Below, one piece after another: positions 1,227-46,179 of a stretch of DNA of 64,000 nt. A program made the position numbers and the translations under genes. Each line of letters starts with the position of its first letter. Position 1 is the first letter of the stretch. The notes under the pieces were generated by a model, which had not been told where the DNA came from, did no database searches, and saw only the letters and a program-made list of their open reading frames with translations. The stretch comes from Myxococcota bacterium. Its GTDB lineage: Bacteria > Myxococcota_A > UBA796 > GCA-2862545. The DNA is taken from positions 1 to 64,000 of the forward strand of contig JBCCQY010000022.1 of NCBI GenBank assembly GCA_039208735.1. Reading direction: 5' to 3'.

Positions 1227-1258
1227 AAAAGGGACTCACCACCTGGTGAGTCCCTTTT
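1227..1258. terminator. Bidirectional intrinsic terminator
   Basis: Perfect 14-bp stem AAAAGGGACTCACC / GGTGAGTCCCTTTT with 4-nt loop, A and T tracts on each side, between convergent genes. Confidence 0.9.
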
Positions 1259-2200: not shown

Positions 2201-5200
2201 TCAGAGATGAGCAGATGAGCCGGACGACGCCGGCGTGGGGTTCGACGGAGCTGCGGGGAACTCCGCGCGGATGTCGGCGAGGTTTTTCGCCACGCGCTCC
2301 GCGGTCCACCGCAGTTGCTCGTGGGAGTGGGTCGACGACAGGAAGAAGCGGAGTCGCGCCGCATCGTCGGCCACCGCCGGGTAGACGATGGGCTGAACGT
2401 TGATGCCTTGCTCTTTGAGCCGTTGCGAAAGGAACAGCGCGTGCATGGAATGCCCAGTGACGGCGGGCACCACACCCGAGCCTCCCAAGGCGGGCCCTGT
2501 GTCCACGCCATGTTCGACGAGGGCATCGTGAAAGACCTTGGCGTTGCTCTGGAGCTTCTCGACCCGCCACCGCTCTTCGCGCATCAGCCGCAAGCTCGCG
2601 AGGGCGGCAACGGCGTTCGCGGGGGTGATGCCCGCGCTGTAGACGAACCCCGGCGCGGTGTAGCGCAGGTACCGGATCATTTCTTTTGAACCGGCAATCC
2701 AGCCCCCACAGCTCGCGAGGCTCTTCGAGAGCGTGCCCATCCACAAGTCCGCGTCGCGAGGCGTCACTTGGCCGGCGAAATGCTCACCTACGCCGCATCC
2801 CGTCGAACCACACACCCCGAACGAGTGGGCTTCGTCGACCATGAGTAGACACCCGTGCTTGCGCTTGAGTTCGACAAACGCGGGGTAGTTCGTGATGTCG
2901 CCGTCCATCGAGTAGACGCCTTCCACGATGATGAGGCACTTCTCGTGGTGCGGCCGCAGCTCGGTGAGCAGCTGGTCGAGGTGCTCAGGATCTTCATGCC
3001 GGAATGCCCGACGCCCCGCGCCCGACAGCTTGATGCCCTGCAACGCGGAGTCATGGATGAGCTCGTCGTGCAGGATGAGGTCGGTCGGCTTCATGAGGTG
3101 GCCAATGACGTTCACGTTCGTCATGTGGCCAGCCGTGAACACGAGGGCATCGTCGAGCCCCTGGGCTTCGGCGAGTTCGCGCTCGAGTTCTTGGTGGAAG
3201 GGCCGTTCCCCCGATGCCACACGAGAGGCAGATACCGAGGTCCCGTACTTGCGCACCGCCTCGTTGACCTCCTCGATGACGCGTTCGTCACCGGACAACC
3301 CGAGGTAGTTGTACGAGCTGAAGTTGACCAGCTCTCGTCCCTCGACGAGCGTGGTGTCGCGAGCGGTGCCCTGATGCACGTGGAAGTAGGGATTTTCGAG
3401 CCCTACCGCGGATGCCATCTCGAGGCGCTGCTCGAGGTCTCGAATCTCGGCCCACTTCGAAGGATCGACCCATTCGTCCTTGACGACAAAGTCGGGCACG
3501 GGTGCCGCGGGCGCCTCTTCGGCGTTGGGGTCGCGCTGCATCTCGGCGACCGTGCCTTCGATGACGGTGACGAGGCTGCCCAGGTCATCCCGCAGCCAGA
3601 ACGAGGCCACGAATCGGTCGCCCTCGGCCTCATCGAAGCGCGCTTCGACGGTCAGGGGGCCGGGAGCCGCCGGTGCGACCTGGACCAGTCGGCGCACCGC
3701 GACGGGCGTTCCGGCGCGCCCGTACCGGTCCCACACCACCAATGCCCCTAGCTGGAACGCCGAGTCCACAGCCAGTGGATCAACGGCCCACGCCGGGCGG
3801 TCCGTGCCAGGAATCCAATCCTTAGGCGAACGACTTTGCACCACACCACGGGCGAAGTTGTCCGAGACGCCGTCGACCTGCGTAATGCCCTGCAACAAGG
3901 GCCCGTGGAAGGTCACGTCCCCGTAGAAGGTGGCCAAATCGGTGGCCGGCGGTGCGCCCCCCGAGAGTCGGGAGGGGTTTTCTGGATAGGCCGCCGGACG
4001 CACGCGGGCCTGGTAAGCAAGGCGTCGCTGGGGTCCGATGCGAAGCTCGGCTTTTTCGCCGTCGATGCTCGCCGTGACGGTGACCGGCTCGGCCACTGTG
4101 ATGCCGTTGAACAGCTCCACGTCGACCACTTCGAAGGGCGCAGGAACGCCCGCGATCTGCGCCAGGAGGTCCGTGGCCGAGGCCAGCGGAAGAATCGGCA
4201 CCCCTTCAATGGCATGGTCGAGCAAGTAGGGATGGGTCTCGGTCGAGAGGTGATGCTCGACCGTGCGCCGCCGCATCCAGTAGGGCAAAGCACGGCCCTT
4301 GGTGAGCGCGCCGCGACCGTGGTGCAGGTCGGCGAGCAGGGCGTTCATGCCGGCTTCGTCCCCGACAAAGTCGATGCCTTCGGCGCGCATCGTCGCCTGG
4401 ATGGCGGCGGGAATCGTCGATGCCATCTCGGAGGTGGCCCAAGGCCCGTACTCCCCGGTCACAATTCGCAAGGCGGTGCCCGGCCAGTGCTGGGACAGGC
4501 CCGCCAACGTCGCGTTCGCCGCTGCGTAATGGGCCTGATGCCGGTTTCCAAAGCGACCCGCCCATGACCCGAGGGCCATGGCGACGGTGACTTCCGTGCC
4601 TGCCGCCGCCAGGGCATTGAGCAGGCCCGCCACCTTGATGCGCCGAGCCATGGCGCCGTGTTCGGCTTCCACAGTCCCCAACGCTCCATCGGCCAACACA
4701 CCGGCCGAATGGACCACCGCGGTGAACGGACGGTGCGGAGCCACGGCCGCGACCAGGGCTTGGCGATCGGTGACGTCCGCCGCGACGGCGGTGATGCGCT
4801 CCCCAAGCGACGCTTCGGGGGCCTTTCGCCCCACCACGACGACCTCGGCGCCTTCCGCCGCCAAGCGTTCGGCGAGGGCTCGACCGATGCCCCGCGTACC
4901 CCCCGTGATGAGGACCCGGTCTGCAGCACCTGGAGTCCAGCCTTCGGTCGGTGCTTCGACCGGCTCGAATCCGATGACGAATCGACCCTGGGGACCGAAG
5001 TGGACGTCGGGGCTGTGGTCATCGTGTTGGAGGGTCCGCACGAGCGATGCAGCCCGTTCGGCGGCCCCCAAACCGGCAAACCACAACGTCTGGGACGGAC
5101 GGCCTGACCATTCTTGATTCGCGGTTCGGGCCACGCCTGCCAAGCCGCTTGCCCACGGATCGTCGGTCCGCGCGAGCACGATCACCCCGGGCTGTTGGCC

Positions 5201-8200
5201 CTTCTTCGCGTGGGCATCGAGCAACGCGATGAGCGGTCCCGCCGGGTCCGGCAGGACCGCTTCTCCGGCCGCCACCGCAGCGGGCGACACCGGATCCTCG
5301 AAGTCTGCGACCCAGACTACGACGTCGACGGGTTCGGTGGGATCGTCCACCACCGTGGCGCTCGCAATGCGCAACGCCGCGGCGTAGGGCTCGCTCGGGC
5401 CGACCACGGCCACCCGAAGCCCGTCGAGCGACCGCATGGGTCCTTCGAGGGCCGCCGGACGCCAATGCAGCGCATACGACGTCAGCGGCGCGTCGTCATC
5501 GACGTCGTCGGCATCGCGGTTCCGATGAATGTGTTCCGCGAGGGCCTGAACCGTGGGTCGGTTCATCAACAGCTCTCGGGGCAAACCACCGAGACCAGGG
5601 AACACCCTCGACAACCCGGTCGCGAGGTCGGACACCATCAACGAGTCGAACCCAAGGTCGTCGAACAACGACAGGTCGGCTCGCACCGCTGCACGCGGGT
5701 AGGAGCTGACCTCTGCCACGACATCCGCGACCTTCTCGAAGACATCGTCGAGGGTGAGTTCGCCGTCGGCCGGTGTTTCCACAGCAACATGGCCTGCGCC
5801 GTTCGTCGTCACCCCATTCGTGACGCCATTGGTCGTGAGATCGGGCTCGTCCGTAACTGCGGATCGATGGGCTGCATTGAGGTTCAGGCGTCGCTGGGCC
5901 ACGTCGCTGATGGGCCAGTACGGCTCACGCGGCCATTCCTGTGCGGGCAAGCTGCGCACCTGGACGTCACGGGTCAACGACGTCGTGTCGAGGTCCACCC
6001 CTTCGACCCACAGTCGGCCAAGGGCTTCGAGCACGGCGCGCCCACCGTCGTCATCCTCGCGGCCTGACAGCGACAAGACCGCCTGTGCATCACGACCGAC
6101 CACCTTGCGGGCGAACGAGGCCAACGGACCTCCGGCTCCGACCTGGAGGTAGATCGTCGATCCCGCATCGGCGAGCTGGTGCAAGGCGCGCTGGAAGTGA
6201 ACGGGGCTTCGCTGGTGCCGGGCAAACACCGCATGGGCATCCGCCGCCGAGGCGTACGGCGACGCGGCAATCCCCGAAGCGACGACAACGTCGGGGCTCG
6301 GGTCTTGAAGCGAGACCTGCGCCACCAACGCTTCCCCATCGACCTGTTCGAAGATCGGCGAGTGGAAGGCGTGACTGACGGTCAGGGGCTTCGCATCGAC
6401 GCCCGCGGCCGTCGCACGTTCGACGACCTGGGCGACCGCCTCGGTGTAGCCCGAGACCACGACCTGCTTGGGATGGTTGTCGTTGGCGACGACCGCTCCC
6501 TCAACAAGGAACTCAACCGCCCGCTCGCCCGAGCAGCGCAACGCCGCCATGCTTCCAGGGTCGCCCTCAACCGCATTCATGGCTTGGCCACGGTAAGCGG
6601 CGAACCGCACGGCATCGCGCTTCGACAACACCCCGCCCACCGCCGCGGCCGCGAACTCACCGAGCGAGTGCCCAGCTGCGGCCACAGGCTTCACCCCGAC
6701 CTCTTCGAGGATGCGATGCAGGGCAAGGCCCGCCGCCACCAGTGCGGGCTGGCAGTTCTCGGTCTGCGTCAGTTCAGCCTCGGCCGCCTCGGCATCGATC
6801 GGCTCGGACCGCTTCTCGGGGTAGAGCAGGTGGGTCAGCGGACGCGCAACGATGTCCGACAGGTCTTCTTCGAACCCCTGAAGCGCTTCGTCGACCACGG
6901 GAAAGCGCTCGATGACCGAACGCAGCATGCCGACGCGTTGCGCTCCTTGACCGGCAAACAACAGCGCGACCTTTGGAGCCTTGCGCGGCACCTCACCGAT
7001 GTTCGCCCCCTTCGGGAACTCGCCCCTCGACACTTCGTCGAGCAGTCCCAAAAGCTCATCGCGCGTGCCTGCGACCAAAGCACAACGGTGCTCCACGGCC
7101 TGCCGCACGTTCCAGGTGCGCGCCACTTCGGCCACGGTCAGGTCCGGGTGGGCCCGCAATTCCTCGGCGAGTCGCTCCGCGGTTCGCCGCAATCCGTCTT
7201 CAGTGCCCGCGGAGAAACGCACAATTTCGAGCTGCTCGGGAGCCGAAACGCCATTGACGGCATCGGCGGAAGCACCCACTGTCGGAACGCTCGCAGAAAC
7301 ACCGGTTCGCCGGGCTTCGTACCCACGCAACACCAGGTGTCCGTTGGTGCCGCCAAATCCAAACGACGACAGCGCGGCCAATCGGGGCCCCTCCCACGGA
7401 CGGGCCGCCGTAGGGATGACAAAGTCGCCGCGTTCGAGTTCGATGGCCTCTTTCGGGTTCTCGAAGCCCGCCATTGGGGGAATCACGCCGTGATGAACCG
7501 CCAGCACGGTCCGCGCGAGTCCTGCCGCCGCCGCAGCCGACATCGTATGGCCCACGTTGGCCTTCGAAGACCCCAGCGCGACGTTGTGGATTGCGCCATT
7601 GAACGCATCGCGCATCGCCCCGATTTCCGAGACGTCGCCGACCGAGGTGCCTGTGCCGTGGGTTTCGATGTAGCGAAGCTCGGCCGGATCGGCGCCCGCG
7701 TCCTTCCAGGCGTCCATCATGACGGCGGCCTGGCCCGCCCGAACGGGAGCCATGGGACCGTCCCCATGCCCGTCATTGTTGAGCGCCACGCCTTCGATCA
7801 CCGCATAAATGCGGTCTCCGTCACGCTCCGCGTCTTCGAGGCGCTTGAGCAAAAAGCTTCCCGCCCCATCACCCTGGACAAACCCATCCGCCCGCGTGTC
7901 GAAGGGCAAGCAACGCCCTTGCTCGCTCATCGCCCCAATCCGGGCGAATGCGATGTAGTGTTCGGGGGTCATCTGCAGGTAGGAGCCCCCGGCGAGGGCT
8001 GCGTCGATGGTCCCCGTCCGAAGCTGCATGACGGCGTCGTGCACCGCGACCAATGCCGATGCACAGGCGGCGTCAACCGTGTATGCAGGACCCTGAAGGT
8101 CGAGTTCTTGAGCCACTGCTGCGGAGGGCATGTTGGCTAGCACGCCGGGCGCCGTGAAGGGTCGCACCTGAACGATGCGTTCCACGGCATCCGCGAGCGC

Positions 8201-8656
8201 TTCAGCGTCCTCCGGGGCTCGTCCAAACTGCCCCGTGGCCATCATCGTGGCCATGACCCGGGTTCCCATCATCATCCGGAATTCGTTCGCCGTGATGCCG
8301 ACGAACACCCCGGTGCGGCGGGGAAGCTGCGACGGCAGGTAGCCGCCGTCCGCGATGGCCTGAAGGGCGACCTCGATGGACAGCCGCTGTTGCGGATCCA
8401 TCACCTCGACCCGGCGCGGCGGAATGCCGAGCATCAGGGCGGGGAACGAGCGGATGTCGTCCATGAACGCACCCGCTTTCGCGTAGGTCTTGTCGGCGGC
8501 CCGGCGGTTCGCGTCGTAAAACGCGGCCTCCGGCCATCGGTCGGCGGGCACGGGCCCAAAGGCATCCCGGCCGTCGGTGGTCAGCTTCCAGTAGTCGTGG
8601 AGATCGGACGCACCGGCGTACCGGCAGCCCATCCCGACGATGGCAATGGCGCTCAC
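2201..8656 (-). CDS. Type I PKS/FAS-like enzyme KS-AT-ACP-KR-DH fused to a C-terminal PLP alpha-oxoamine synthase (SPT/BioF family)
   Basis: KS: DAACAS, HGTGT, KANVGH. AT: GHSLGE, HAFH (malonyl type). ACP: LGFDSL. KR: GGTRGIG, HSAGVLAD, YAAAN. DH: HAIEGVPILP, DSAFQ. AOS: SYNYLGL, EGVYSMDGD, DEAHS, GTLSKS. Confidence 0.93.
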   Translation of the reverse strand: MSAIAIVGMGCRYAGASDLHDYWKLTTDGRDAFGPVPADRWPEAAFYDANRRAADKTYAKAGAFMDDIRSFPALMLGIPPRRVEVMDPQQRLSIEVALQAIADGGYLPSQLPRRTGVFVGITANEFRMMMGTRVMATMMATGQFGRAPEDAEALADAVERIVQVRPFTAPGVLANMPSAAVAQELDLQGPAYTVDAACASALVAVHDAVMQLRTGTIDAALAGGSYLQMTPEHYIAFARIGAMSEQGRCLPFDTRADGFVQGDGAGSFLLKRLEDAERDGDRIYAVIEGVALNNDGHGDGPMAPVRAGQAAVMMDAWKDAGADPAELRYIETHGTGTSVGDVSEIGAMRDAFNGAIHNVALGSSKANVGHTMSAAAAAGLARTVLAVHHGVIPPMAGFENPKEAIELERGDFVIPTAARPWEGPRLAALSSFGFGGTNGHLVLRGYEARRTGVSASVPTVGASADAVNGVSAPEQLEIVRFSAGTEDGLRRTAERLAEELRAHPDLTVAEVARTWNVRQAVEHRCALVAGTRDELLGLLDEVSRGEFPKGANIGEVPRKAPKVALLFAGQGAQRVGMLRSVIERFPVVDEALQGFEEDLSDIVARPLTHLLYPEKRSEPIDAEAAEAELTQTENCQPALVAAGLALHRILEEVGVKPVAAAGHSLGEFAAAAVGGVLSKRDAVRFAAYRGQAMNAVEGDPGSMAALRCSGERAVEFLVEGAVVANDNHPKQVVVSGYTEAVAQVVERATAAGVDAKPLTVSHAFHSPIFEQVDGEALVAQVSLQDPSPDVVVASGIAASPYASAADAHAVFARHQRSPVHFQRALHQLADAGSTIYLQVGAGGPLASFARKVVGRDAQAVLSLSGREDDDGGRAVLEALGRLWVEGVDLDTTSLTRDVQVRSLPAQEWPREPYWPISDVAQRRLNLNAAHRSAVTDEPDLTTNGVTNGVTTNGAGHVAVETPADGELTLDDVFEKVADVVAEVSSYPRAAVRADLSLFDDLGFDSLMVSDLATGLSRVFPGLGGLPRELLMNRPTVQALAEHIHRNRDADDVDDDAPLTSYALHWRPAALEGPMRSLDGLRVAVVGPSEPYAAALRIASATVVDDPTEPVDVVVWVADFEDPVSPAAVAAGEAVLPDPAGPLIALLDAHAKKGQQPGVIVLARTDDPWASGLAGVARTANQEWSGRPSQTLWFAGLGAAERAASLVRTLQHDDHSPDVHFGPQGRFVIGFEPVEAPTEGWTPGAADRVLITGGTRGIGRALAERLAAEGAEVVVVGRKAPEASLGERITAVAADVTDRQALVAAVAPHRPFTAVVHSAGVLADGALGTVEAEHGAMARRIKVAGLLNALAAAGTEVTVAMALGSWAGRFGNRHQAHYAAANATLAGLSQHWPGTALRIVTGEYGPWATSEMASTIPAAIQATMRAEGIDFVGDEAGMNALLADLHHGRGALTKGRALPYWMRRRTVEHHLSTETHPYLLDHAIEGVPILPLASATDLLAQIAGVPAPFEVVDVELFNGITVAEPVTVTASIDGEKAELRIGPQRRLAYQARVRPAAYPENPSRLSGGAPPATDLATFYGDVTFHGPLLQGITQVDGVSDNFARGVVQSRSPKDWIPGTDRPAWAVDPLAVDSAFQLGALVVWDRYGRAGTPVAVRRLVQVAPAAPGPLTVEARFDEAEGDRFVASFWLRDDLGSLVTVIEGTVAEMQRDPNAEEAPAAPVPDFVVKDEWVDPSKWAEIRDLEQRLEMASAVGLENPYFHVHQGTARDTTLVEGRELVNFSSYNYLGLSGDERVIEEVNEAVRKYGTSVSASRVASGERPFHQELERELAEAQGLDDALVFTAGHMTNVNVIGHLMKPTDLILHDELIHDSALQGIKLSGAGRRAFRHEDPEHLDQLLTELRPHHEKCLIIVEGVYSMDGDITNYPAFVELKRKHGCLLMVDEAHSFGVCGSTGCGVGEHFAGQVTPRDADLWMGTLSKSLASCGGWIAGSKEMIRYLRYTAPGFVYSAGITPANAVAALASLRLMREERWRVEKLQSNAKVFHDALVEHGVDTGPALGGSGVVPAVTGHSMHALFLSQRLKEQGINVQPIVYPAVADDAARLRFFLSSTHSHEQLRWTAERVAKNLADIRAEFPAAPSNPTPASSGSSAHL

Positions 8657-11124: not shown

Positions 11125-11979
11125 TCAGCTCGCCTCGTCCGCCGCGACCTTCTTGAGGGCGGTCCGCCACTCCTGATCGGCGAGGTACCGAGAAAGACCA
11201 GGGAAGTGCTTGTACATGAACCAAATGAACCAAACGTCGGAACCCGGGAAGTTCTCGAACCGGCCTCGCTCGATCGCGCGAAGCATGGACTTGGCGACAT
11301 CGTCGGGCGCATGGGTCTTGCTGAAGGCCGAGTCGGCCTCCATTTTCCAAACCGCCTTAGGCTTGGTCTCGTTTTCGTTCTGCAGCCCTGGAGTATCGGT
11401 GGTGCCCGGGTAGAACAGCGTCACCTTGATACCCTGGGTCCCCACCTCCATGCGGAGGCTTTCGGCAAAACCAGCGATCGCAAATTTGGATGCCGAGTAT
11501 GCGCTGTAGCCAGGCATCGACATGAAGCCGAGAGCCGAACTGACCAAGCAAATGTCCGCCCGTCCACCGTCTTCGCGACGCAGTTCTGGCACAAATGCAC
11601 GCACGACGTTGACGTGGCCAGTGTAGTTCACGGCCATCATCGCATCGAAATCGTCGTCGGAAAGGTCGGTGAGGTAGCCCGGGCGCGCCGATCCGACGTT
11701 CGTGATGAGCACGTCAACCCCACCCCCGAGCTGCTGTTTCACGGGCTCGACCGCATCTCGAACCGCGGCGCGATCCGTGACATCGAGCGAGCAAAACCCT
11801 AGTGCCTGGCCATCCTTGGCCACGGCACGCATCGCGGCGACCGTCTCCTCGAGCGGAGGCACCCGACGCGCCGCGACGACCACATGGGCCCCCTGTCGGG
11901 CCAACGCCACCGCCGCGGAGCGACCGATCCCTTCGCTTCCGCCGACCAAGAAGACACGTTTGCCCGAAAAGTAGCTCAT
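11125..11979 (-). CDS. SDR oxidoreductase, 3-ketodihydrosphingosine reductase (KDSR/Tsc10)-like
   Basis: GGSEGIG, YSASK, and the segment YPGTTDTPGLQNENETKP resembling the KDSR signature. Confidence 0.85.
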   Translation of the reverse strand: MSYFSGKRVFLVGGSEGIGRSAAVALARQGAHVVVAARRVPPLEETVAAMRAVAKDGQALGFCSLDVTDRAAVRDAVEPVKQQLGGGVDVLITNVGSARPGYLTDLSDDDFDAMMAVNYTGHVNVVRAFVPELRREDGGRADICLVSSALGFMSMPGYSAYSASKFAIAGFAESLRMEVGTQGIKVTLFYPGTTDTPGLQNENETKPKAVWKMEADSAFSKTHAPDDVAKSMLRAIERGRFENFPGSDVWFIWFMYKHFPGLSRYLADQEWRTALKKVAADEAS

Positions 11980-12810: not shown

Positions 12811-13602
12811 TCAGGTGGCGCGCGGCGTCAGCACGGCTCGGGCCATCACCGCATTGGGGTCCGCGCTGCGCGCCAGGACGAATGCCACACAGTCGTTGCT
12901 CACCGGCCACTGCCACATCGTGAGTTCGTCGTGGGCTACCGCCTGCCCGCGGTAGTCAATGGTCGCCTCTCGGGCGGGCGCGCCAAGCGCATCCTCAAAC
13001 AACCGCAGGTAGTTCGCGTTGTTCACGTGGTCGTGCACATCGCAGTCGCTGGGTCGCACCCGAACGAGCGAGGTGACGGCATCGCCCGGAACATCTCGAA
13101 ACACGGTGTCGTCAAGCGTAGGTTCGAAACGCTGTTCGGGAGGTGAGAGGAACGATCCCGGCCGCCCGGCGTCGGCCGGAACGTCGGTGCGCGAAGGCAA
13201 CGGCGCGTCGGTCGTGGCCTCACGAACGTGGTTGGGGACCCGCGCCATGCGGCCCGACGGAGCGATCCAAATCGCATTGATGAACGCTCGGGCGAGGAGA
13301 ACTCCGTCTTCGCGAAGGAGATCCTGCTCGACGATGCAATTCACCCGGCCCACCTCGCGCAGGATGGCGCGGACGACAAGCTTGGTTCCGATGCCAAACG
13401 TCCGCACCACCCCCAGCGTGGCTCGGTGGACGACGAAGAAGTGCCCTTCGTGCAAGGGTTCCACGAGTCCAAAGCGTGGCTCGAGGATCCATTCCCATCG
13501 ACAATGCTCACACAGGGAGAGGATCTGCGGCAGGCCGACAACCGCACCCTGGGTGCACTCGTAGCCGCGAATGGTCACGGGGACCGAGAATACATCGTCC
13601 AT
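12811..13602 (-). CDS. Double hot-dog acyl-ACP/acyl-CoA thioesterase
   Basis: C-terminal domain VRPSDCDVHDHVNNANY (acyl-ACP thioesterase catalytic-type motif); N-terminal hot-dog-like domain (IRGYEC...EHCRWEW). Confidence 0.72.
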   Translation of the reverse strand: MDDVFSVPVTIRGYECTQGAVVGLPQILSLCEHCRWEWILEPRFGLVEPLHEGHFFVVHRATLGVVRTFGIGTKLVVRAILREVGRVNCIVEQDLLREDGVLLARAFINAIWIAPSGRMARVPNHVREATTDAPLPSRTDVPADAGRPGSFLSPPEQRFEPTLDDTVFRDVPGDAVTSLVRVRPSDCDVHDHVNNANYLRLFEDALGAPAREATIDYRGQAVAHDELTMWQWPVSNDCVAFVLARSADPNAVMARAVLTPRAT

Positions 13603-13630
13603 GAGCGCCACCTTAGCGCGGAGGTCGCCT

Positions 13631-15031
13631 TTGACGCCCGAGCACCACGTCACCGCCTTGCTTCCCGAGCCTGGGGAGCCCCCAGAGACCGTCTCCACCT
13701 TGCTGGCCGCCATTCGTAAGGCGGGCCGCACCCGCGACCAGGCGGTGTACGAGGCCGCCTACTACGAGGTGTTCGAACCCCTCGACGTCCTTGATGGTCG
13801 GCTGGGGGAAGCTCGCTACCTCGGGGGCACTGCGCCTTCGGCGGAAGACTGGTGGGCGTTCGCCGTACTGATTCGCTTTGACCTCGCTTATTACAACTTC
13901 TACAAGCTCAATCGCCAGCGCCTCGAAGACTTCGACAACCTCGGACCCTGGCTTCGCGACCTCTACCAACGAGACGGCATTGCCGAGACGGTGGACCTGC
14001 GAGCCATCCGAGAACACTACGCGGCGGAGGACGAAGGCACGAACCCCAAGGGACTCACTCCCGTGGGCCTCGGCCCAGACTTGCGCACCCCCCATGATCG
14101 CTTCCGCTTTGATGCGGCGGTCGACACCGAGCGTGGTGTGCAAGAAGACCCCTCCCGACCTCGGCGTCCGGGGGAGTGGGTCCGACCGGCAAGTGGCCAT
14201 CGCGACTTCATCAGCGTGGAAGGCTCCACCGGGTTCCCTGCCGAGGCCGGCCGATACCACCTCTACATCGCGAACAACTGCCCCTGGTCACACCGGACGG
14301 CCTTGGCCCGGTCGATCCTGGGACTCACCGACGTCATCACCATGGACGTGCTCTACTGGCGTCGAGATCCCGAGCACGGCTGGCAGTTTCGACCCGAGGC
14401 GCCCGATTGCACGCCAGACACGTTGTTTGGGTCGCACTACCTGCGCGAGATCTACCGCCGGGTGGGGTCGGACGAAAAATCGGTACCCGTGCTGTTCGAC
14501 CGCGTGACGAACACCATCGTCAACAACGAATCCGCCGAAATCGTTCGCATGCTCAACGGCGCCTTCGCCACCCTTGGGAACGGGCACCACGACCTCTACC
14601 CGCAAGCGCATCGCGCCGAGATTGACCACCTCAATGGCTATGTCTACCAGTACGTCAACAACGGAGCCTACAAGGCAGGGTTTACCTCCTCGCAAGCGGT
14701 GCATGACACCTGGTCTCGCTACGTCTTTCGGGCCCTCGATTGGCTGGACCGTCGGCTTGCGGACCGTCAGTGGCTCGTAGGCGATGCCCTAACCGAGGCC
14801 GACCTGCGGTTGTTCCCCACCATTTACCGCTTCGATCCCGTGTATGTGATCCGGTTCCGTCTCGACCAGCGGCGCATCGCGACCTACCCAAACCTCACGC
14901 GGTGGCTCTCGCAGATGTTGGACGTCCCCGGCGTGCGTGAGGCGTCGAACCTGCAGCACTGCAAGAACGGATACTTCGGGCGAACGGGCAACGAACTTGT
15001 GCCCGTGGGCCCTGCCGATCCGCTCGCGTAA
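13631..15031 (+). CDS. Glutathionyl-hydroquinone reductase (YqjG/Xi-class GST) with an extra N-terminal GST C-domain copy
   Basis: GRYHLY..NNCPWSHRT, SVPVLFD, IVNNESAEI, NNGAYKAGF, RFDPVY. TTG 13631 follows GGAGG; ATG 13601 is an alternative start. Confidence 0.85.
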   Translation: MTPEHHVTALLPEPGEPPETVSTLLAAIRKAGRTRDQAVYEAAYYEVFEPLDVLDGRLGEARYLGGTAPSAEDWWAFAVLIRFDLAYYNFYKLNRQRLEDFDNLGPWLRDLYQRDGIAETVDLRAIREHYAAEDEGTNPKGLTPVGLGPDLRTPHDRFRFDAAVDTERGVQEDPSRPRRPGEWVRPASGHRDFISVEGSTGFPAEAGRYHLYIANNCPWSHRTALARSILGLTDVITMDVLYWRRDPEHGWQFRPEAPDCTPDTLFGSHYLREIYRRVGSDEKSVPVLFDRVTNTIVNNESAEIVRMLNGAFATLGNGHHDLYPQAHRAEIDHLNGYVYQYVNNGAYKAGFTSSQAVHDTWSRYVFRALDWLDRRLADRQWLVGDALTEADLRLFPTIYRFDPVYVIRFRLDQRRIATYPNLTRWLSQMLDVPGVREASNLQHCKNGYFGRTGNELVPVGPADPLA

Positions 15032-18437: not shown

Positions 18438-20567
18438 GTGCGAATCGGAGTGATGACGAGCGGTGGAGATGCCCAGGGCATGAACGCTGCGGTCCGCGGA
18501 GTGGTGCGACGCGCACTCGCCGCGGGCCTTGAAGTAGTCGCAGTCTACGAGGGCTATGCGGGTCTCGTGGCAGGCCGGATGGGCCCTTGCACCTCAACCA
18601 CCGTCTCCCGCATCCTCCATCTGGGAGGAACCCACTTTGGCACGGCGCGGTGCCCCGAGTTTCGGACGACGGAAGGACGACGAACGGCCGTCGCCAACCT
18701 CGTGGACGCCGGGATTCATCACCTCGCCATCATCGGCGGCGATGGTTCGCTCACCGGAGCCATGGTGCTTCGGACCGAATGGACGGATCATCTGCAGGCG
18801 CTCGTCGCGGAGGGCCGCCTTACTGCGGAACAGGCCGAGGGCCATCCCTCGCTCGCCATCGTGGGAATGGTCGGCTCGATCGACAACGATCTATGGGGCA
18901 CGGACCGTACGATCGGTTGTGACAGTGCCTTGCATCGCATCGTGCACGCGATCGACACGCTGACCGCCACCGCTCGGAGCCACCAACGCTCCTTCGTCGT
19001 CGAGGTCATGGGTCGACACTGCGGCTTCCTCGCGCTCGCCGCGGCCGTGTGCACCGGCGCAGACCACCTGCTCATTCCCGAGGCTCCGAGCGACGACTGG
19101 AAGCGTGATGTCGTGGCTGCAGTGCGCCGGGGACGAGCCCAAGGCAAGCGCAAGGCCATCGTCATCGTGGCCGAGGGAGCCTGTGACAAGGACGGAGTCG
19201 ACATCGAAGCCGCCGATGTGCGCAAGGTGCTCGAAGCGGAACTCGACGCCGAGACTCGAGTGACCGTGCTCGGCCACGTGCAGCGCGGCGGCGCCCCCTC
19301 CGCCTACGACCGCATCACGTCGTCGATGCTCGGGGCCCGCGGGGCGGAAACGCTGATCGGCATGACCGGAGCGGACGAACCGATGGTCATGACCACCCAA
19401 GGCCTCGCCATCGAACCTCGGCCGCTCGCGGAGTGCCTCCGGCAAACCCAGGCGCTGGCGGCCGCGCTCAAGGAACGGAACTACACCGCAGCCGTCGAAG
19501 CCCGAGGCCCCGAGTTTGGCGAGCTGCTCTCCTTGCACCATCGCCTCACCAAGGCCCCCGACGAAGCTCCACAGGGGCCTCGCATCCTCCTCACCCATGT
19601 GGGGGCTCCGGCCCCGGGGATGAACCCCGCCATCCGAGCCTTCGTCCGTCTCGCGCGCGGCCGAGGCGCGGTGCCCCTGCTCGTGCAAGACGGGCTACGC
19701 GGGCTGGCGACCAACCAGATCCACGAGGCGACTTGGAACGAGGTGAGCGGCATCGCGTCGTTGGGCGCCACGGTGCTGGGCACGCGTCGGGCTCCCGCCG
19801 ATTCTGCGGTGCTTGCCGCCCTCGACGAACACGCGATCCACGGTGCGGTGATCGTGGGCGGGTTTGAGGCCTTGCCCACGGCTGCCGCCATCGCCGCCAC
19901 CGGACGTCCGGTCGCGGTCGTGCCCGCCACCATCTCCAACAACGTGCCGGGGACCGATTCGAGCGTCGGTTGTGACACCGCGCTCAACGTCATCGTCGAC
20001 GCCGTCGACCGGCTCAAGCAATCCGCGGTGGGCTCCCGGGACCGCGTGTTCGTGGTCGAAGTCATGGGCCGTCGCTGCGGCTACCTCGCGGTGGCGGGCG
20101 GGCTGGGGGCCGGCGCTGAGATCGTCTACCAGCATAAACCTGGAATCACCCTGTCCGGCCTCAAGGAGGACGTCACCAAGCTCGCGGAAGCCTACGACCG
20201 CGGGCGGCAGGTGGGCATCGTGCTCATGGCGGACGGCGCCTCCGAGGCGTTCAGCGCGAATACCCTCGCGCGGGTGTTTCAATCGGAATCTGGCGGACGG
20301 TTCGACACGCGCGTCTGCGTGCTGGGTCACCTCCAACAGGGGGACCGGCCATCCCCTGCCGACCGGTTGCTCGCGACCCGCCTGGTCGATCGGGCCGTTC
20401 ACCACGCAGCCGACGGCGAAGGTGCGGTTGTGGTCGGCGTCGAAAGAGGCCTCGTGATCCAGGCTTCGGTGGCCAGCCGCATCGAAGAAGCAGACCTTTC
20501 GCATCGGCGTCGCAAGACCCCCGTGCACAGCGATTGGGATGAGGTCGCAACCCTTCTTCGAGGCTAA
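18438..20567 (+). CDS. pfkA: 6-phosphofructokinase, tandem two-domain (eukaryote-type)
   Basis: N-half: TSGGDAQGMN, GGDGSLTGA, GSIDND, EVMGRHCG, LGHVQRGG. C-half: VGAPAPGMN, PATISNNVPG, EVMGRRCG, LGHLQQG. Confidence 0.92.
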   Translation: MRIGVMTSGGDAQGMNAAVRGVVRRALAAGLEVVAVYEGYAGLVAGRMGPCTSTTVSRILHLGGTHFGTARCPEFRTTEGRRTAVANLVDAGIHHLAIIGGDGSLTGAMVLRTEWTDHLQALVAEGRLTAEQAEGHPSLAIVGMVGSIDNDLWGTDRTIGCDSALHRIVHAIDTLTATARSHQRSFVVEVMGRHCGFLALAAAVCTGADHLLIPEAPSDDWKRDVVAAVRRGRAQGKRKAIVIVAEGACDKDGVDIEAADVRKVLEAELDAETRVTVLGHVQRGGAPSAYDRITSSMLGARGAETLIGMTGADEPMVMTTQGLAIEPRPLAECLRQTQALAAALKERNYTAAVEARGPEFGELLSLHHRLTKAPDEAPQGPRILLTHVGAPAPGMNPAIRAFVRLARGRGAVPLLVQDGLRGLATNQIHEATWNEVSGIASLGATVLGTRRAPADSAVLAALDEHAIHGAVIVGGFEALPTAAAIAATGRPVAVVPATISNNVPGTDSSVGCDTALNVIVDAVDRLKQSAVGSRDRVFVVEVMGRRCGYLAVAGGLGAGAEIVYQHKPGITLSGLKEDVTKLAEAYDRGRQVGIVLMADGASEAFSANTLARVFQSESGGRFDTRVCVLGHLQQGDRPSPADRLLATRLVDRAVHHAADGEGAVVVGVERGLVIQASVASRIEEADLSHRRRKTPVHSDWDEVATLLRG

Positions 20568-40749: not shown

Positions 40750-40907
40750 CGCTCCTCCGGCGCAGTCCGTTTAAAGCGCGTGGCAGCCTCTGCCCACAGC
40801 CGGTTCCCGACCGTCCTGAACGTGGTCAAGCGGCGTGGCCCGTGACGCGACGGTGCAACACGGATACCGCCGACAAGGCGCCGTTTCCGGCGTCGTGGAG
40901 CCCATCC

Positions 40908-42077
40908 ATGAAGCTCGCCGACACGGCGCGTCAGGTCCTCGCGCCGACGTATCGCCAGCCCGACCCCATCCTCACGCGTGGCGAAGGGTGCTGGGTGTGG
41001 GACGAAGACGACAACGCCTACCTCGACATGACCACGGGCATCGCAGTCACCTCCCTCGGCCATGGTGCCCCCGTGGTCCGGGAAGCCCTGATCGAGGCCG
41101 CTAATGGCCTCACCCACACCTCGAACCTCTACTTCACGCGACCCGCCATCGAACTGGCCACGGCCCTCGTCGAGCACTCGTTTGCCGACCGGGTGTTCTT
41201 CTGCAATTCCGGCACGGAGTCGGTCGAAGGAGCCATCAAGTTCGCACGCTTGGCGGCCGGGGATCGGCGCGACATTGTCTATTTCGACGGGGCGTTCCAC
41301 GGGCGAACGTTTGGCGCATTGGCGGCCACCGACCGAGAAGCCTCCCGACGGCCCTTCGAGCCCCTTCCGGGCGGGTTCCGCCGGGCTCCATTCGATGACG
41401 ACATCGCCCTGACCATGATCGACGAATCCGTGGCGGCCGTCATGGTCGAACCGTTGCAGGGCGAAGGTGGGGTGCGGGTGCCCCGGCCGGAGTGGCTGCG
41501 TGCGCTACGGACTCGCTGCGACGAGGTCGGTGCCTTGCTCATCGCCGATGAGATCCAGTGCGGGCTTAGCCGAACGGGTCGGTTGTGGGCCCACGAGCAT
41601 GCCGACATCCAGCCCGACATCATGACGCTGGCCAAACCCTTGGCGGGGGGGCTGCCCATGGGCGCCATCCTGTTGGGGCCACGGGTGGTCGATGCCATCT
41701 CGCCCGGCGTGCATGGGTCGACGTTCGGGGGCGGCCCCCTCGTCGCGAAGGTCGCGCTGGCCGTGTTTCATGCCCTGCGCGACCCCGAGCTGTTGGCCGG
41801 CGTGCAGCCCCGCGCGGATCTGTTGCGCAAAGCCTTGCTCGAAGCATTAGGCAATGACCTCATCGAGGTTCGTGGGGTGGGCCTCCTGATGGGAGTAGCG
41901 TTGCGCCTCGACCATCCCGGGAGGGCCATGGCGCGGGCCGCGTTCGAAGAGGGCTTGCTGTTGGCCGCCGCGTCGGGCAACGTTTTGCGAATCCTCCCCC
42001 CTCTCAATGCCCCCGAAGCGGACCTTCTCGAAGCAGTCGATCGACTCGCCCGAACGGTCCGCCGGCTCAAGGGCTGA
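40908..42077 (+). CDS. argD: Acetyl/succinyl-ornithine aminotransferase
   Basis: HTSNLY, FFCNSGTE, FHGRT, EPLQGEGG, DEIQCG, TLAKPL, HGSTFGG. Confidence 0.85.
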   Translation: MKLADTARQVLAPTYRQPDPILTRGEGCWVWDEDDNAYLDMTTGIAVTSLGHGAPVVREALIEAANGLTHTSNLYFTRPAIELATALVEHSFADRVFFCNSGTESVEGAIKFARLAAGDRRDIVYFDGAFHGRTFGALAATDREASRRPFEPLPGGFRRAPFDDDIALTMIDESVAAVMVEPLQGEGGVRVPRPEWLRALRTRCDEVGALLIADEIQCGLSRTGRLWAHEHADIQPDIMTLAKPLAGGLPMGAILLGPRVVDAISPGVHGSTFGGGPLVAKVALAVFHALRDPELLAGVQPRADLLRKALLEALGNDLIEVRGVGLLMGVALRLDHPGRAMARAAFEEGLLLAAASGNVLRILPPLNAPEADLLEAVDRLARTVRRLKG

Positions 42078-42119
42078 TGCGCTGGTTACAGCGGTCAGCC
42101 GAGTTCGAAGGAGACTCCC

Positions 42120-43097
42120 TTGGCTGACGTACGCCACGACTGGACCCGCGAAGAGGTCCGCGCGCTGTTTGACCTTCCCTTCGCGGAGGTAGCCTTCCGC
42201 GCTCAGGTCGCTCACCGGGCGCACCACGACCCCAGCAAGGTCCAGCTCGCCACGCTGTCCAACATCAAGCGCGGGGGATGTCCCGAGGATTGCGCCTATT
42301 GCCCACAAGCCGCTCGCTACAACACCGGCGTGGAAAGCGAAGGCCTCCTCCCCCTCGACGAGGTCATCGATCAGGCGAAACGCGCCAAGGCAAATGGCGC
42401 GTCGCGGTTCTGCATGGGGGCCGCCTGGCGTGAAGTGCACGACGGACGCGCGTTCGATCGGGTCGTGAAGATGGTCGAAGCCGTCAATGACTTGGGCCTC
42501 GAAGTGTGCGCCACCTTGGGCATGATCGATGAAGCGAAGGCCCGTCGCCTCGCGGATGCTGGGTTGTATGCCTACAACCACAATCTCGACACCTCGCCCG
42601 AACACTACGCCGAGATCATCAGCACCCGCACCTACCAGGACCGCCTCGATACGCTTGGCAACGTGCGTCGGGCCGGCCTCACGGTGTGCTGTGGAGGCAT
42701 CGTCGGCATGGGCGAAACGCGCGAAGATCGCATCGGGCTCCTCGTCACCATCGCCGGTCTGAACCCGCACCCCGAATCGGTGCCCATCAACCAGCTGGTT
42801 CCTGCGCCGGGAACGCCGCTCGCCGAAGAAAAGGGCGTCGACATCTTTGAGTACCTGCGCACGATCGCGATCGCCCGCATCCTTCTTCCAACGTCGATGA
42901 TCCGGCTTGCCGCCGGCCGCACCGCGCTGTCTCGAGAAGGTCAGGCGTTCGCGTTTTTGTGTGGAGCCAACAGCATTTTCTATGGCCCCGCCCTGCTCAC
43001 CACCGAGAACCCACCGATCGACCAAGACCATGCCCTGCTCAACACCCTCGGCATGGGTCCGCTCGAGCCCCAGGTGGCAGCTCGCTCCGCCAAGTAG
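42120..43097 (+). CDS. bioB: Biotin synthase
   Basis: CPEDCAYC radical-SAM motif, RFCMGAAWR, YNHNLDTS, PESVPIN. Confidence 0.96.
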   Translation: MADVRHDWTREEVRALFDLPFAEVAFRAQVAHRAHHDPSKVQLATLSNIKRGGCPEDCAYCPQAARYNTGVESEGLLPLDEVIDQAKRAKANGASRFCMGAAWREVHDGRAFDRVVKMVEAVNDLGLEVCATLGMIDEAKARRLADAGLYAYNHNLDTSPEHYAEIISTRTYQDRLDTLGNVRRAGLTVCCGGIVGMGETREDRIGLLVTIAGLNPHPESVPINQLVPAPGTPLAEEKGVDIFEYLRTIAIARILLPTSMIRLAAGRTALSREGQAFAFLCGANSIFYGPALLTTENPPIDQDHALLNTLGMGPLEPQVAARSAK

Positions 43098-43099
43098 CC

Positions 43100-44257
43100 A
43101 TGGCCTCCCGCATCGAGGCCCGGTTTGCGGGCCGACTCGACGCCATCGATCGTCACGGACTGCGCCGACACCTGGCCCTTCCCGAGGGCCGTTCCGTCAC
43201 CAGCAACGACTACCTGGCGCTGACGCGCGATGACGAGGTGCAAAAAGCGTTGCGGAACGCCTTCGAAGCGGGCCTACCCACGGGTTCGACCGGTTCTCGG
43301 CTGTTATCGGGGCATCATGAAGCCGTGGCCCGGTTGGAGGCCACCGTGGCGCGCTGGCAAGCCGCCGATGCCGCGTTGCTCTATCCAAGTGGGTTTCAGG
43401 CGAATCAAGGGCTCTTAGGCACCGTCCTCGAGCCCGGCGACGTCGTGGTGTCGGATGCGCTGAACCACGCCAGCCTCATCGATGCGATGCGCCTCACCAA
43501 AGCTGAACGTCGGATCGTGCCTCACAACGATGTCGACGCCATCGTGAAGGCCATCGATCCCGAACGGCCCACGGTCGTCGTGGTGGAATCGGTGTACTCG
43601 ATGGATGGCGACTCCGCCCCGCTGGCCGACCTTGCGACCGCCTGCGCGGAACGCCGCGCCGCTTTGATCGTGGATGAAGCCCACGCCACCGGGATGTACG
43701 GACCGGAAGGTGCAGGGCGCGTAGCTGAAGTGGGCGTGCGTGAGGCCGTCTTGGCGACGGTGCACCCTGCAGGAAAGGCGCTCGCGGCTGCGGGGGCGTT
43801 CGTGGTGGGGTCGGAGGCGCTCCGCGATCTGCAGTTGCAGCGAGCACGCAGCTTCATCTACAGCACGGCGCCCCCTCCGTTGCTCGTCGCCACTCTCGAA
43901 GCCGTGATCGAACGCATCCGCGGCGATGCCCCGTTGCGTGCGCGGCCCCGGCAGCTTGGAGCAAGGCTTCGGTCCCGCCTGCGTCCTGTCGTTGAGGCAG
44001 CGGGGGGCACCATTCCCGGTGACGACAGCCCCATCGTGCCGGTGGTCGTGGGGTCGGTGGACGCCGCGGAAGCGCTTGCGCAGGGCTTGCGGCGACGGGG
44101 TTGGGCAGCCCGACCGATCCGCCCCCCCACCGTGCCGGAGGGCACCTGCCGGGTGCGCCTGGTCGTCCGCGCCGACCTCACCGAAGCCGACATCGACCAG
44201 CTCGCGAACGATGTAGCCGCGGCGCTTCGGACGAGCCCCTCCTCGTGCGGAGGTTAG
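43100..44257 (+). CDS. bioF: 8-amino-7-oxononanoate synthase
   Basis: SNDYLAL, GSTGSRLLSG, LNHAS, ESVYSMDGD, DEAHA, GKA, IRPPTVP. Confidence 0.9.
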   Translation: MASRIEARFAGRLDAIDRHGLRRHLALPEGRSVTSNDYLALTRDDEVQKALRNAFEAGLPTGSTGSRLLSGHHEAVARLEATVARWQAADAALLYPSGFQANQGLLGTVLEPGDVVVSDALNHASLIDAMRLTKAERRIVPHNDVDAIVKAIDPERPTVVVVESVYSMDGDSAPLADLATACAERRAALIVDEAHATGMYGPEGAGRVAEVGVREAVLATVHPAGKALAAAGAFVVGSEALRDLQLQRARSFIYSTAPPPLLVATLEAVIERIRGDAPLRARPRQLGARLRSRLRPVVEAAGGTIPGDDSPIVPVVVGSVDAAEALAQGLRRRGWAARPIRPPTVPEGTCRVRLVVRADLTEADIDQLANDVAAALRTSPSSCGG

Positions 44258-44286
44258 GACGCCGGTTCTTGTCAGGAGCCTCTCGC

Positions 44287-46179
44287 GTGTTGCCCGATCC
44301 CATCTACGTCACCGGCACGGACACCGACGTCGGCAAGACCGTGGTCTCAGCCCTGTTGGCCCAAGTTCTCGACCGGGCCTACTGGAAACCCGTACAGGCG
44401 GGACGTCCCACCGATCGCGACACGGTCGCCGCGCTGACCGGGGTACCCACCCATCCCGAAGCGTTGGTCCTCGAACGCCCCGCCTCTCCACACGCCGCCC
44501 TTCAAACCGAAGGGCGAACCTTGGACCTCGAGGCGCTCACCCTGCCCGCGGGGCCCCTGATCGTGGAGGGAGCGGGCGGCTGGATGGTGCCGTATTCGAT
44601 GACCGACGATCACGTCGTGTGGCAGGCCGACGTCGTGCGGCATCTGCGGCTGCCCGTGATCGTGGTCGCCCGAAGCGGGCTTGGCACCCTCAACCACACC
44701 CTGTCGACGCTTCGAGCCATCCGCGCCGACGGGATCGTCCCGGTTGGCCTCATCTTGGTGGGCCCAGCGCATCCCGAAAACGAACGCGACCTGCCCCGGC
44801 TGGGAGGGGTGCCCGTGCTCGCCCGACTCGATCGAGCAACCCTGCCCGACGACGCGCCGAAGCTCGCGGCCTCGCTCCGGCAGCAGCTCGACCAAGCCAG
44901 CCCCGGTCCGGTTCGCAGCCCCGGAAGAGAGGCGGAAGGCCTCTGGCATCCATTTACACAGTTGAAAGGCTTCGTACCGCGGGGGAATGTGGTGCGCGCA
45001 GAAGGCGCATGGCTCACCCTCGGCAACGGACGCCGCGTGCTCGACGGCATCTCGTCTTGGTGGGTGACCCTGCATGGGCACAGCCATCCGGCCGTCATGG
45101 CCGCCATCGCCGAGCAGGCCCATACCTTTGACCAGGTCATTCTGGCCGACTTCGCCCACGGTCCGGCCGTCGAGTTGTCCGCCCAACTCGCGCAGGTGCT
45201 CCCTGGCGACGTCGACCACGTCTTCTACTCGGATGACGGCTCCACCTCGGTCGAAGTGGCGCTCAAAATGGCCCTGCAGGGTCACCGGCAGCTCGGGGCA
45301 AACCGTACGCGGTTTGTGGCGTTTGACGGCGCGTACCATGGTGACACGGCGGGGGCGATGAGCGTGGGCGAGCGTGGTCCGTTCACCGACGCCTTCGAAC
45401 CCATGATGTTCGACGTCACCCACTTGCCCTACGACGACGCGGATGCCCTCGACGCCTGGCTCGACGCCCATGGTCACGAGGTCGCAGGGGTGATTCTCGA
45501 GCCGATGGTGCAGGGCGCCGCGGGCATGCGGTTTTGCTCGGCCGAGTTCCTCGTTCGGGTCCGAGCCGCCTGCGATCGGGTGGGCGCTTGGATGATCACC
45601 GACGAAGTGTTCACCGGCTTCGGCCGCACGGGACGCATGTGGGCGAGCGACCACGCCAACCTCGTGCCCGACATCATGTGCCTGTCGAAGGGCCTGACCG
45701 GCGGCTCGATCGCGATGGGGGCCACCGCTTGTCGCACCCACATCTTTGAAGCGTTTCTCGACGACGACCACGCTCGGGCCTTCCTCCACGGCCATAGCTA
45801 CACCGGCAGCCCCATCGCTTGTGCGGCCTCGTTGGCCTCGCTGGCGCTGTTTGAGACCGAGGGCACCCTCGCGCGGGTCGCCGCGATCGAAGCGGCGTAT
45901 ACGCAGGCTTCAGCGCCTCTACGTGACCTCGAAGGCGTCGAGAACCTCCGCATCCGAGGCGACATCCTGGCCTACGAAGTGAAGGGAGGACCCGGGGGGT
46001 ACTTTGATCCCGTGGGACGCCGTATCTGCGACCGTGCCTTCGCCGAAGACCTCTACGTGCGACCCTTGGGCAACACGCTGTACATGGTGCCGCCGTTGTG
46101 CACGACGCCCGCGGAAATCGCCTGGGCGGTCGACATCCTCATCCGAGCGACCCGCGCAGAACTCGGCCGAGGCGCGTAA
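44287..46179 (+). CDS. bioDA: Fused dethiobiotin synthetase / DAPA aminotransferase
   Basis: BioD: TGTDTDVGKT, WKPVQ, EGAGG, LGTLNH. BioA: WHPFTQ, SSWW, YHGDT, DEVFTGFGRTG, SKGLTGG, HGHSY. One open frame. Confidence 0.9.
   Translation: MLPDPIYVTGTDTDVGKTVVSALLAQVLDRAYWKPVQAGRPTDRDTVAALTGVPTHPEALVLERPASPHAALQTEGRTLDLEALTLPAGPLIVEGAGGWMVPYSMTDDHVVWQADVVRHLRLPVIVVARSGLGTLNHTLSTLRAIRADGIVPVGLILVGPAHPENERDLPRLGGVPVLARLDRATLPDDAPKLAASLRQQLDQASPGPVRSPGREAEGLWHPFTQLKGFVPRGNVVRAEGAWLTLGNGRRVLDGISSWWVTLHGHSHPAVMAAIAEQAHTFDQVILADFAHGPAVELSAQLAQVLPGDVDHVFYSDDGSTSVEVALKMALQGHRQLGANRTRFVAFDGAYHGDTAGAMSVGERGPFTDAFEPMMFDVTHLPYDDADALDAWLDAHGHEVAGVILEPMVQGAAGMRFCSAEFLVRVRAACDRVGAWMITDEVFTGFGRTGRMWASDHANLVPDIMCLSKGLTGGSIAMGATACRTHIFEAFLDDDHARAFLHGHSYTGSPIACAASLASLALFETEGTLARVAAIEAAYTQASAPLRDLEGVENLRIRGDILAYEVKGGPGGYFDPVGRRICDRAFAEDLYVRPLGNTLYMVPPLCTTPAEIAWAVDILIRATRAELGRGA

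Follow-up and report, generated by a model that had tools for sequence, protein, structure and literature searches.

A fused polyketide synthase-oxoamine synthase without an enoyl reductase as a candidate sphingoid-base synthase in Myxococcota

Can a bacterium set the 4E double bond of sphingosine while the chain is still being built, with no desaturase acting at that position? This question is raised by an open reading frame (ORF 8656-2201) in the first 64,000 nucleotides of contig JBCCQY010000022.1 of a Myxococcota bacterium (GenBank assembly GCA_039208735.1), the whole of which is called the window here. An earlier note had read the ORF as a polyketide synthase (PKS) with the domain order of PfaA and of the enediyne synthases (PKSE), namely ketosynthase (KS), acyltransferase (AT), acyl carrier protein (ACP), ketoreductase (KR) and dehydratase (DH), ending in an oxoamine synthase (AOS) resembling serine palmitoyltransferase (SPT) and lacking an enoyl reductase (ER), and had proposed an O2-independent route to 4E-sphingosine. 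Our comparison of sequences and genomes makes it highly probable that the product, here PKS-AOS, is a synthase of a sphingoid-type base of some kind that replaces the stand-alone SPT, while the full pathway, 4E bond included, stands at about even chances.

Pfam placed KS, AT, ACP, KR, DH and Aminotran_1_2 (AOS) along the ORF in that order (Table 1). The earlier note had proposed an architecture search as a check; at E<=1e-3 the KR-DH-AOS region had 1235 matching proteins, of which the 120 listed all had the same architecture or were fragments of it. This argues that the domain order is not due to chance. The top match in an atlas search was a cluster of identical architecture, with taxa unrecorded. 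In all 107 full-length relatives (those of the 120 matches listed with 2000-2250 aa), KS residues C198, H333 and H370, AT S664 and ACP S1005 were invariant. Among 240 relatives, that is, all matches listed by two protein searches, KR K1341, S1364 and Y1377 and DH H1481, P1490 and D1631 were kept in every one, as was H1868 of the AOS, with D1941, K1978 and R2103 kept in 239 each. The AOS thus carries the PLP lysine motif (GTLSKS, aa 1974-1979) and the catalytic His, Asp and Arg of SPT. The DH is assigned by Pfam and motifs, PKS_DH_N scoring 25.5 bits (just below its cut-off of 27) and PS-DH 44 bits (above its cut-off). We take the AT motif (HAFH with GHS664) to be malonyl-type and the KR motif (LAD1323) to be B-type-like, a type that by the usual PKS rules presumably goes with E double bonds after dehydration; Asp stood at the third place of this LDD-like motif in 238 of the 240 relatives. 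Several relatives of ~1770-2120 aa (P0144-P0200; for example P0145, P0149, P0153 and P0162) had KS, KR, DH and AOS with no AT match in Pfam and may be AT-less variants.

No ER was found in cis, the longest gap between domains being 205 aa, whereas the ER of related PKSs takes up ~300 aa. A profile built from three ER-bearing related PKSs matched none of the 240 relatives and none of the called genes of 42 loci (the window, its nearest relative L001 and, picked for family spread, 40 of the remaining 62 genomes with a match). The order, the intact motifs and the missing ER described in the earlier note were therefore borne out by Pfam, by the residue counts and by the ER profile.

To place the protein among genomes, we compared its occurrence with that of stand-alone SPT. 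The KR-DH-AOS part was present at E<=1e-150 in 63 of 401 genomes of the phylum (the carriers), in one copy each and in 14 families, including all 20 genomes of the window's family and 11 of 12 of another. A stand-alone SPT-like gene (model NF047600, E<=1e-105, none above the model's own cut-off) was present in 95 of the same genomes, from 23 families. No genome had both, against 14.9 expected, and the only family with both gene types had them in different genomes. When 80 of the 95 SPT-bearing genomes were searched with the AOS alone (E<=1e-80), one gave a match, a stand-alone frame of 461 aa. We took the stand-alone genes as SPTs because the gene order SPT-GNAT-epimerase, which we assume to be the Spt-BcerS-CerR layout, occurred in 4 of 20 loci examined. 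The stand-alone SPTs of family f13 (L109:5984-7618, L110:5993-7519) had an N-terminal extension of 110-150 aa with no NCBIfam match.

Only two further AOSs were found in the window's genome, a Kbl above its cut-off and a BioF adjoining bioA. A biotin or Kbl role for PKS-AOS was rejected, as the genome has its own bioF and kbl; the fused domain scored 339 bits on the BioF model (cut-off 426) and 269 on the Kbl model (cut-off 460). The biotin genes lie in the window at 40842-46179, with an argD-like aminotransferase, a bioF-like AOS (42959-44257) and a frame that contains bioA (44101-46179).

The earlier note had called for KS and AOS phylogenies; we obtained both from quick IQ-TREE runs, unrooted and with SH-aLRT support only. 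The AOS tree had 53 rows, including 22 fused domains and 23 stand-alone SPTs, and its SgaB side was represented by the homologues L088, L090 and L092 in place of PfSgaB. All 22 fused domains fell in a clade with plasmid SgaB/RkpG-type enzymes (SH-aLRT 100, branch 1.0), apart from the 23 SPT rows, and the AOS was 47-50% identical to three such plasmid homologues. The same clade holds a Planktothrix PKS-ER-AOS, a Streptomyces KS-AT-ACP-AOS and a Bacillus ACP-AOS. The NCBIfam SPT models were scored below their cut-offs (CFB 292/640, Beta 267/500 and Alpha 193/670 bits). In the KS tree (37 rows, one partial KS row dropped), the KS family was sister to PfaA, PKSE and PfaC, while the SgaA/RkpA-type and modular KSs lay across a split with a support of 100. 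The kinship with PfaA and PKSE that the earlier note had claimed was upheld by this position and by colinear alignment with the genome's own PfaA and two enediyne PKSEs. The SPT-like character of the AOS held as far as the product goes, a sphingoid base being likely from the genes nearby, from the AOS clade and from the mutual exclusion with SPT, but the domain belongs to the SgaB/RkpG clade and not to the canonical SPT clade. On this evidence the protein would join a chassis of the Pfa/PKSE lineage to an AOS of the SgaB lineage, and would not be a fused SgaAB.

PfaA and PKS-AOS share the KS-AT-ACP-KR-DH order and neighbouring KS clades, and align over aa 4-904 (32% identity) and 971-1704 (24%). 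They differ in that PfaA has tandem ACPs (four or more) and PKS-AOS a single one, and in the C-terminal AOS of PKS-AOS; PKS-AOS also scored 494 on the PfaA model TIGR02813 (cut-off 1010), and no PfaB, PfaC or PfaD lies at its locus. Outside the window, the same genome has a polyunsaturated fatty acid synthase cluster (G000:C13:67765-83755) with PfaD, a PfaBC-like gene, and a PfaA that has four ACPs and exceeds the TIGR02813 cut-off. The enediyne PKSEs have the same order and no ER, and can be aligned over ~1-1010 and 1214-1720; PKS-AOS differs in its C-terminal AOS, its fatty-acid starter module and a KS identity of only 33-35%. No enediyne cassette genes were found among its neighbours, and its KS lies outside the PKSE clade.

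Some observations weigh against a sphingoid-base synthase as the general reading. At the thresholds used, 243 of the 401 genomes had neither gene. Lineage sorting inflates the exclusion with SPT, since kin are not independent. Uncharacterised enzymes of other cluster types (L087, L089 and L091) lie within the AOS clade. The relatives listed carried only names of metagenome-assembled genomes (MAGs), mostly of Myxococcota/Deltaproteobacteria with some Alphaproteobacteria, Proteobacteria and Kiritimatiellia, which makes an uncultured myxobacterium the probable host; a scan of a genome collection gave one locus, again a MAG, so that no named cultured carrier was found in either source. No plasmid record of 640 covered 80% of the KR-DH-AOS part.

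We propose the following pathway. The fatty acyl-AMP ligase (FAAL) would load a fatty acid onto the stand-alone ACP, and in most carriers the desaturase and the methyltransferase would first add a methyl branch or ring to the acyl chain. The KS would then add one malonyl unit, which the KR would reduce and the DH dehydrate, and with no ER the chain would stay as a 2E-enoyl-ACP. The fused AOS would condense it with L-serine and release 3-keto-4E-sphingenine, presumably a reactive enone needing prompt reduction, and the C3 ketone would be reduced by a KDSR-like short-chain dehydrogenase/reductase (SDR) or, in some lineages, by an epimerase-type reductase. A GNAT encoded elsewhere in the genome may N-acylate the base, and the hydroxylase may 2-hydroxylate the N-acyl chain. 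The carbon bookkeeping of the earlier note is sound: acyl C2=C3 becomes sphingoid C4=C5.

That a single extension gives 4E-sphingenine is, in our judgement, evenly balanced. In its favour are the strictly conserved DH and the lack of an ER in cis and in the 42 loci. Nor did a Lipid_DES search find a DEGS-type desaturase in the window's genome; this Pfam model, 37 positions long, matched 2 of the 63 carriers and none of the other 61. Four bacterial DEGS-like desaturases (L145-L148, from G087, G339, G354 and G272) were above the cut-off and 40-53% identical to one another, two of them in PKS-AOS genomes. The neighbouring desaturase was rejected as an unlikely C4 desaturase, as it is not DEGS-like (no PF08557 match; 31.6 bits on a profile of four DEGS-like proteins) and tracks the methyltransferase, not the PKS. 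The His-box desaturase and fatty acid hydroxylase families need O2, and because the locus carries one of each, the O2 independence claimed for the route holds for the C4 bond only.

On the other side, our literature search found no report of a 2-enoyl thioester as the substrate of an SPT, and an ER acting in trans (PfaD, or FabI, FabK or FabV) could reduce the enoyl-ACP before release. PKS-AOS would then be an elongator yielding sphinganines. Housekeeping enoyl reductases exist in any case, and PfaD, the trans-acting ER of the sister PKS family in which PfaA has its ER as a separate protein, was present in 43 of the 63 carriers, including the window's genome, often in multiple copies. SgaAB makes saturated C24-C28 sphinganines (PMC12134224). 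We nevertheless regard a saturated product as unlikely, as none of the 42 loci has a PfaD or an MDR-type ER, 20 of the 63 carriers, including all five genomes of family f58 (one of them closed), gave no PfaD match, and a cis-fused AOS should be a good competitor of a reductase acting in trans.

A second departure from plain 4E-sphingenine would be two or more cycles, giving 4,6-dienes, or a skipped dehydration, giving 5-hydroxy bases. PfaA and PKSE, the sister families, work iteratively, and nothing in the sequence fixes the number of cycles. A short extension is nevertheless what the FAAL and ACP of the starter (39 and 34 of the 42 loci, respectively) and the single internal ACP fit, and the DH is strictly conserved, which leaves these products a small chance.

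The choice of amino acid bears on the last step. PfSgaB of Pseudomonas fluorescens condenses acyl-CoAs with serine in vitro and hardly with alanine or glycine (PMC12134224), and its printed sequence shares with the AOS domain, by eye, GTSVSASR, DELIH, GTLSK, PGF-YS and QPI-YPAV. The V79 position is a selectivity site, with Val in KBL, Thr in ALAS and Ser in SPT and AONS (PMC11906848). The equivalent residue, S1811, was Ser in all 240 relatives listed, and the Val of KBL in none. Serine is thus the likely substrate of the AOS, favoured over alanine and glycine because PfSgaB, the closest characterised enzyme, is nearly serine-exclusive and has the same GTSVSASR loop. Alanine or glycine, which would give a 1-deoxy or 1-deoxymethyl sphingoid, is improbable, even though the loop Ser is also that of the alanine-using AONS and marine water columns contain 1-deoxyceramides with C18-C22 bases (PMC11334938).

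The last alternative is a line for a secreted aminoketone, pyrroline or signal lipid and no membrane lipid, after the manner of RedL. In undecylprodigiosin synthesis, RedL follows a FAAL-ACP-KS-AT-ACP-AOS logic in which a fatty acid is extended once and released onto an amino acid, glycine, with no KR or DH; set against this description, with no sequence compared, the window has KR and DH inserted and FAAL and ACP as separate genes. A KS-AT-ACP-AOS protein without KR-DH was seen on a Streptomyces anthocyanicus plasmid (L087:8371-13209), divergent from an MMPL gene and in the same KS and AOS clades as PKS-AOS. That neighbour, the RedL logic itself and the thioesterase and MMPL genes of locus L070 leave such a product very improbable, set against a gene that is single-copy, near-universal in whole families, exclusive with SPT and accompanied by a KDSR-like reductase, and whose scanned neighbours included no conserved exporter or tailoring cluster.

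We next turn to the starter. New here is that a desaturase and a methyltransferase travel together with PKS-AOS: methyltransferase orthologues were found in 48 of the 63 carriers (7 of them seeds) and desaturase orthologues in 46 (5 seeds), while a single genome, the same one for both, had them among 17 SPT controls. All 46 desaturase genomes also carry the methyltransferase, and 17 carriers have no desaturase. Two carriers have only the methyltransferase, and in one of these (L068) the operon itself includes a soluble acyl-ACP desaturase. The genes recur in the order desaturase-FAAL-methyltransferase-ACP-PKS, and two genomes keep the first four away from the PKS. This co-occurrence and gene order suggest that an ACP-bound starter is probably desaturated and then methylated, giving a methyl branch. 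One genome with a stand-alone SPT and the same desaturase, G230, has an operon of FAAL, methyltransferase, ACP and a FabF-like KS (L132:8000-12273). A methylation module thus exists without the fusion, and the operon is possibly the same starter module feeding type II elongation.

In cyclopropane fatty acid synthase, a His is a residue of the bicarbonate site. The methyltransferase has Gln at this place in 7 of 7 aligned members, compared with His in 5z9o, and a methyl branch is therefore as plausible as a ring. The best NCBIfam match of the desaturase was a delta5 model, at 161 of 500 bits and thus below threshold. After one extension, carbon n of the starter is carbon n+4 of the base, so that a delta5 position becomes C9 and a C16 starter gives a C20 base. 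C9-methyl-C20-sphingosine was reportedly described from Sorangium cellulosum by Keck in 2011. Fungi modify the finished ceramide, with a C9-methyltransferase of CMAS kinship. In the fungal route to 9-methyl-4,8-sphingadienine, a delta8-desaturase acts before the C9-methyltransferase (PMC6920741). By description, with no fungal sequence compared, this route and the window have in common a desaturase-methyltransferase pair and a fatty acid hydroxylase around a sphingoid base; they differ in that the fungal enzymes act on ceramide, whereas the gene order in the window points to an acyl-ACP starter. It is possible, though doubtful, that these parts make up a lineage-wide primary route to sphingosine that was put together independently, with a PfaA/PKSE module fused to an SgaB-type AOS, the 4E bond set by dehydration before serine is added and without a delta4-desaturase, and a methyl branch made at the starter stage (at C9 of a C20 base if the desaturase is delta5 and the starter C16), in reversed order with respect to fungi.

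For the steps after release, profiles of the SDR and of PfaD were run on the 63 carriers. The SDR had one clear orthologue (at least 265 bits, the next match at 181) in 49 carriers, 6 of them seeds, and the three genomes in which an epimerase precedes the FAAL were all among the 14 carriers without it, which suggests that the two enzymes may be interchangeable C3 reductases. Against PDB, fungal TSC10 was the fourth of 108 matches of the SDR profile, which is only suggestive. A BcerS-like GNAT is encoded elsewhere in the window's genome (338 bits) and was found in 32 of the 63 carriers (26 at >=300 bits) and in 12 of the 17 SPT controls (4 seeds); 4 of 9 candidates were dropped from the GNAT alignment as unrelated genes. 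Two results speak against the downstream part of the pathway: the NCBIfam KdsR model was not among the top 25 matches of the SDR, and the GNAT was missing in 31 carriers, among them every one of the 22 genomes that make up ten outer families.

Around the PKS-AOS gene (Table 1), 9 of the 42 loci had a methyltransferase gene and 7 a desaturase gene, the latter never without the methyltransferase; a KDSR-like SDR was present in 8 and a hydroxylase in 3. A phosphopantetheinyl transferase lay immediately downstream in 6 loci and an epimerase immediately upstream in 3. The hairpin at 1227..1258 (z -4.9; 0 of 200 shuffles) is a probable two-way terminator, while a scan for promoters and terminators was at chance level (1 vs 1.2; 11 vs 10.0). 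Locus L068 (L068:3663-16936, G250) is an expanded cluster of epimerase, FAAL, methyltransferase, ACP, soluble acyl-ACP desaturase, PKS-AOS, an AurF-like diiron oxygenase and an acyltransferase of the 2-oxoacid dehydrogenase type. This acyltransferase also occurs in L072, there with a PAP2 gene, and the two are candidates for an alternative N-acyl transferase and a head-group enzyme, respectively. Farther along the window are a GST-family protein with two GST_C stretches (13571-15031) and a 709-aa ORF (18438-20567) that resembles, by eye only, a two-repeat eukaryote-type 6-phosphofructokinase.

Table 1. Position of PKS-AOS, its domains and its neighbours in the window
Feature	Position	Strand	Remarks
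Membrane His-box desaturase, 339 aa	179..1198	+	Convergent with methyltransferase; not DEGS-like
Perfect 14-bp hairpin, A/T flanks	1227..1258	.	Between the convergent desaturase and methyltransferase genes
Short CMAS-family SAM methyltransferase, 284 aa	1338..2192	-	Begins 9 bases past the PKS stop
PKS-AOS fusion, 2151 aa	8656-2201	-	GTG start, GAGG site upstream
AOS domain, SgaB/RkpG clade	2297..3337	-	aa 1774-2120; S1811, H1868, D1941, K1978, R2103
PKS-type DH	3554..4270	-	aa 1463-1701; H1481-x8-P1490, D1631-x3-Q1635
KR domain	4439..4918	-	aa 1247-1406; K1341, S1364, Y1377; LAD1323
Single internal ACP	5531..5740	-	aa 973-1042; GFDS1005L
AT domain	6143..6964	-	aa 565-838; GHS664, HAFH
KS domain	7322..8653	-	aa 2-397 and extension to 524; C198/H333/H370
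Stand-alone ACP, 82 aa	8741..8989	-	Putative starter carrier
FAAL, 581 aa	9057..10802	-	Best PRK09192, 517 bits, below the 600 cut-off
SDR, candidate 3-ketosphingoid reductase (KDSR-like)	11125..11979	-	
Fatty acid hydroxylase family, 205 aa	11976..12593	-	Stop overlaps SDR start (ATGA)
Hot-dog thioesterase-like gene	12811..13731	-	Upstream; locus membership uncertain; in window and nearest relative L001

A route to bacterial sphingolipids through a PKS and an AOS was already published in 2025, with PfSgaA, PfSgaB and PfSgaC of P. fluorescens MYb115 and clusters of the RkpA-RkpG/WcbR-WcbT type (Peters 2025, PMC12134224). These systems and the window have in common a type I PKS and an AOS of the same clade, and the SDR of the window is a candidate counterpart of their KDSR-like SDR; the three plasmid homologues compared above have the gene layout of these systems. 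They differ in that PKS and AOS are separate genes in the SgaAB type and fused in the window, which also has the FAAL-ACP starter module; two plasmid SgaA/RkpA-type homologues are KS-AT-DH-ER-KR-ACP, whereas the window's PKS has the ACP-KR-DH order, no ER and a KS across the supported split. The available part of the genus table of that article (PMC12134224) has no names in Myxococc-, Sorangium or Polyangi-, only three unclassified Deltaproteobacteria. A second type of fusion, KS-AT-DH-ER-KR-ACP-AOS and thus with an ER, was seen on a Planktothrix plasmid (NZ_LR882937.1, L089:3593-11191), near a FAAL and glycosyltransferases. The canonical ceramide pathway, Spt-BcerS-CerR with AasR/AcpR (PMC9386255), resembles the window in that its PLP-dependent condensation is supplied by a FAAL-type ligase together with a dedicated ACP, and GNATs homologous to those behind the stand-alone SPTs also occur in the window's genome; it differs in having an AOS of another clade and no PKS cycle, and it was never found in the same genome as PKS-AOS among the 401. 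No paper on the fused, ER-less PKS-AOS family was found in our literature search, which lacked most subscription journals.

If the proposed pathway is true, PKS-AOS would add a third way of making sphingoid bases, and among those met here it would be the first in which the 4E bond of sphingosine arises without a desaturase. Its genes would also be a compact set for the direct production of sphingosine in a bacterial host. Surveys that rely on stand-alone SPT to recognise sphingolipid producers may go wrong for about one genome in six of the phylum sample (63/401). The starter genes also suggest, as a hypothesis at the level of genes, how bacteria come by methyl-branched, unsaturated sphingoid bases; if it is true, they would reach a fungal-type methylated base by a reversed, assembly-line order.

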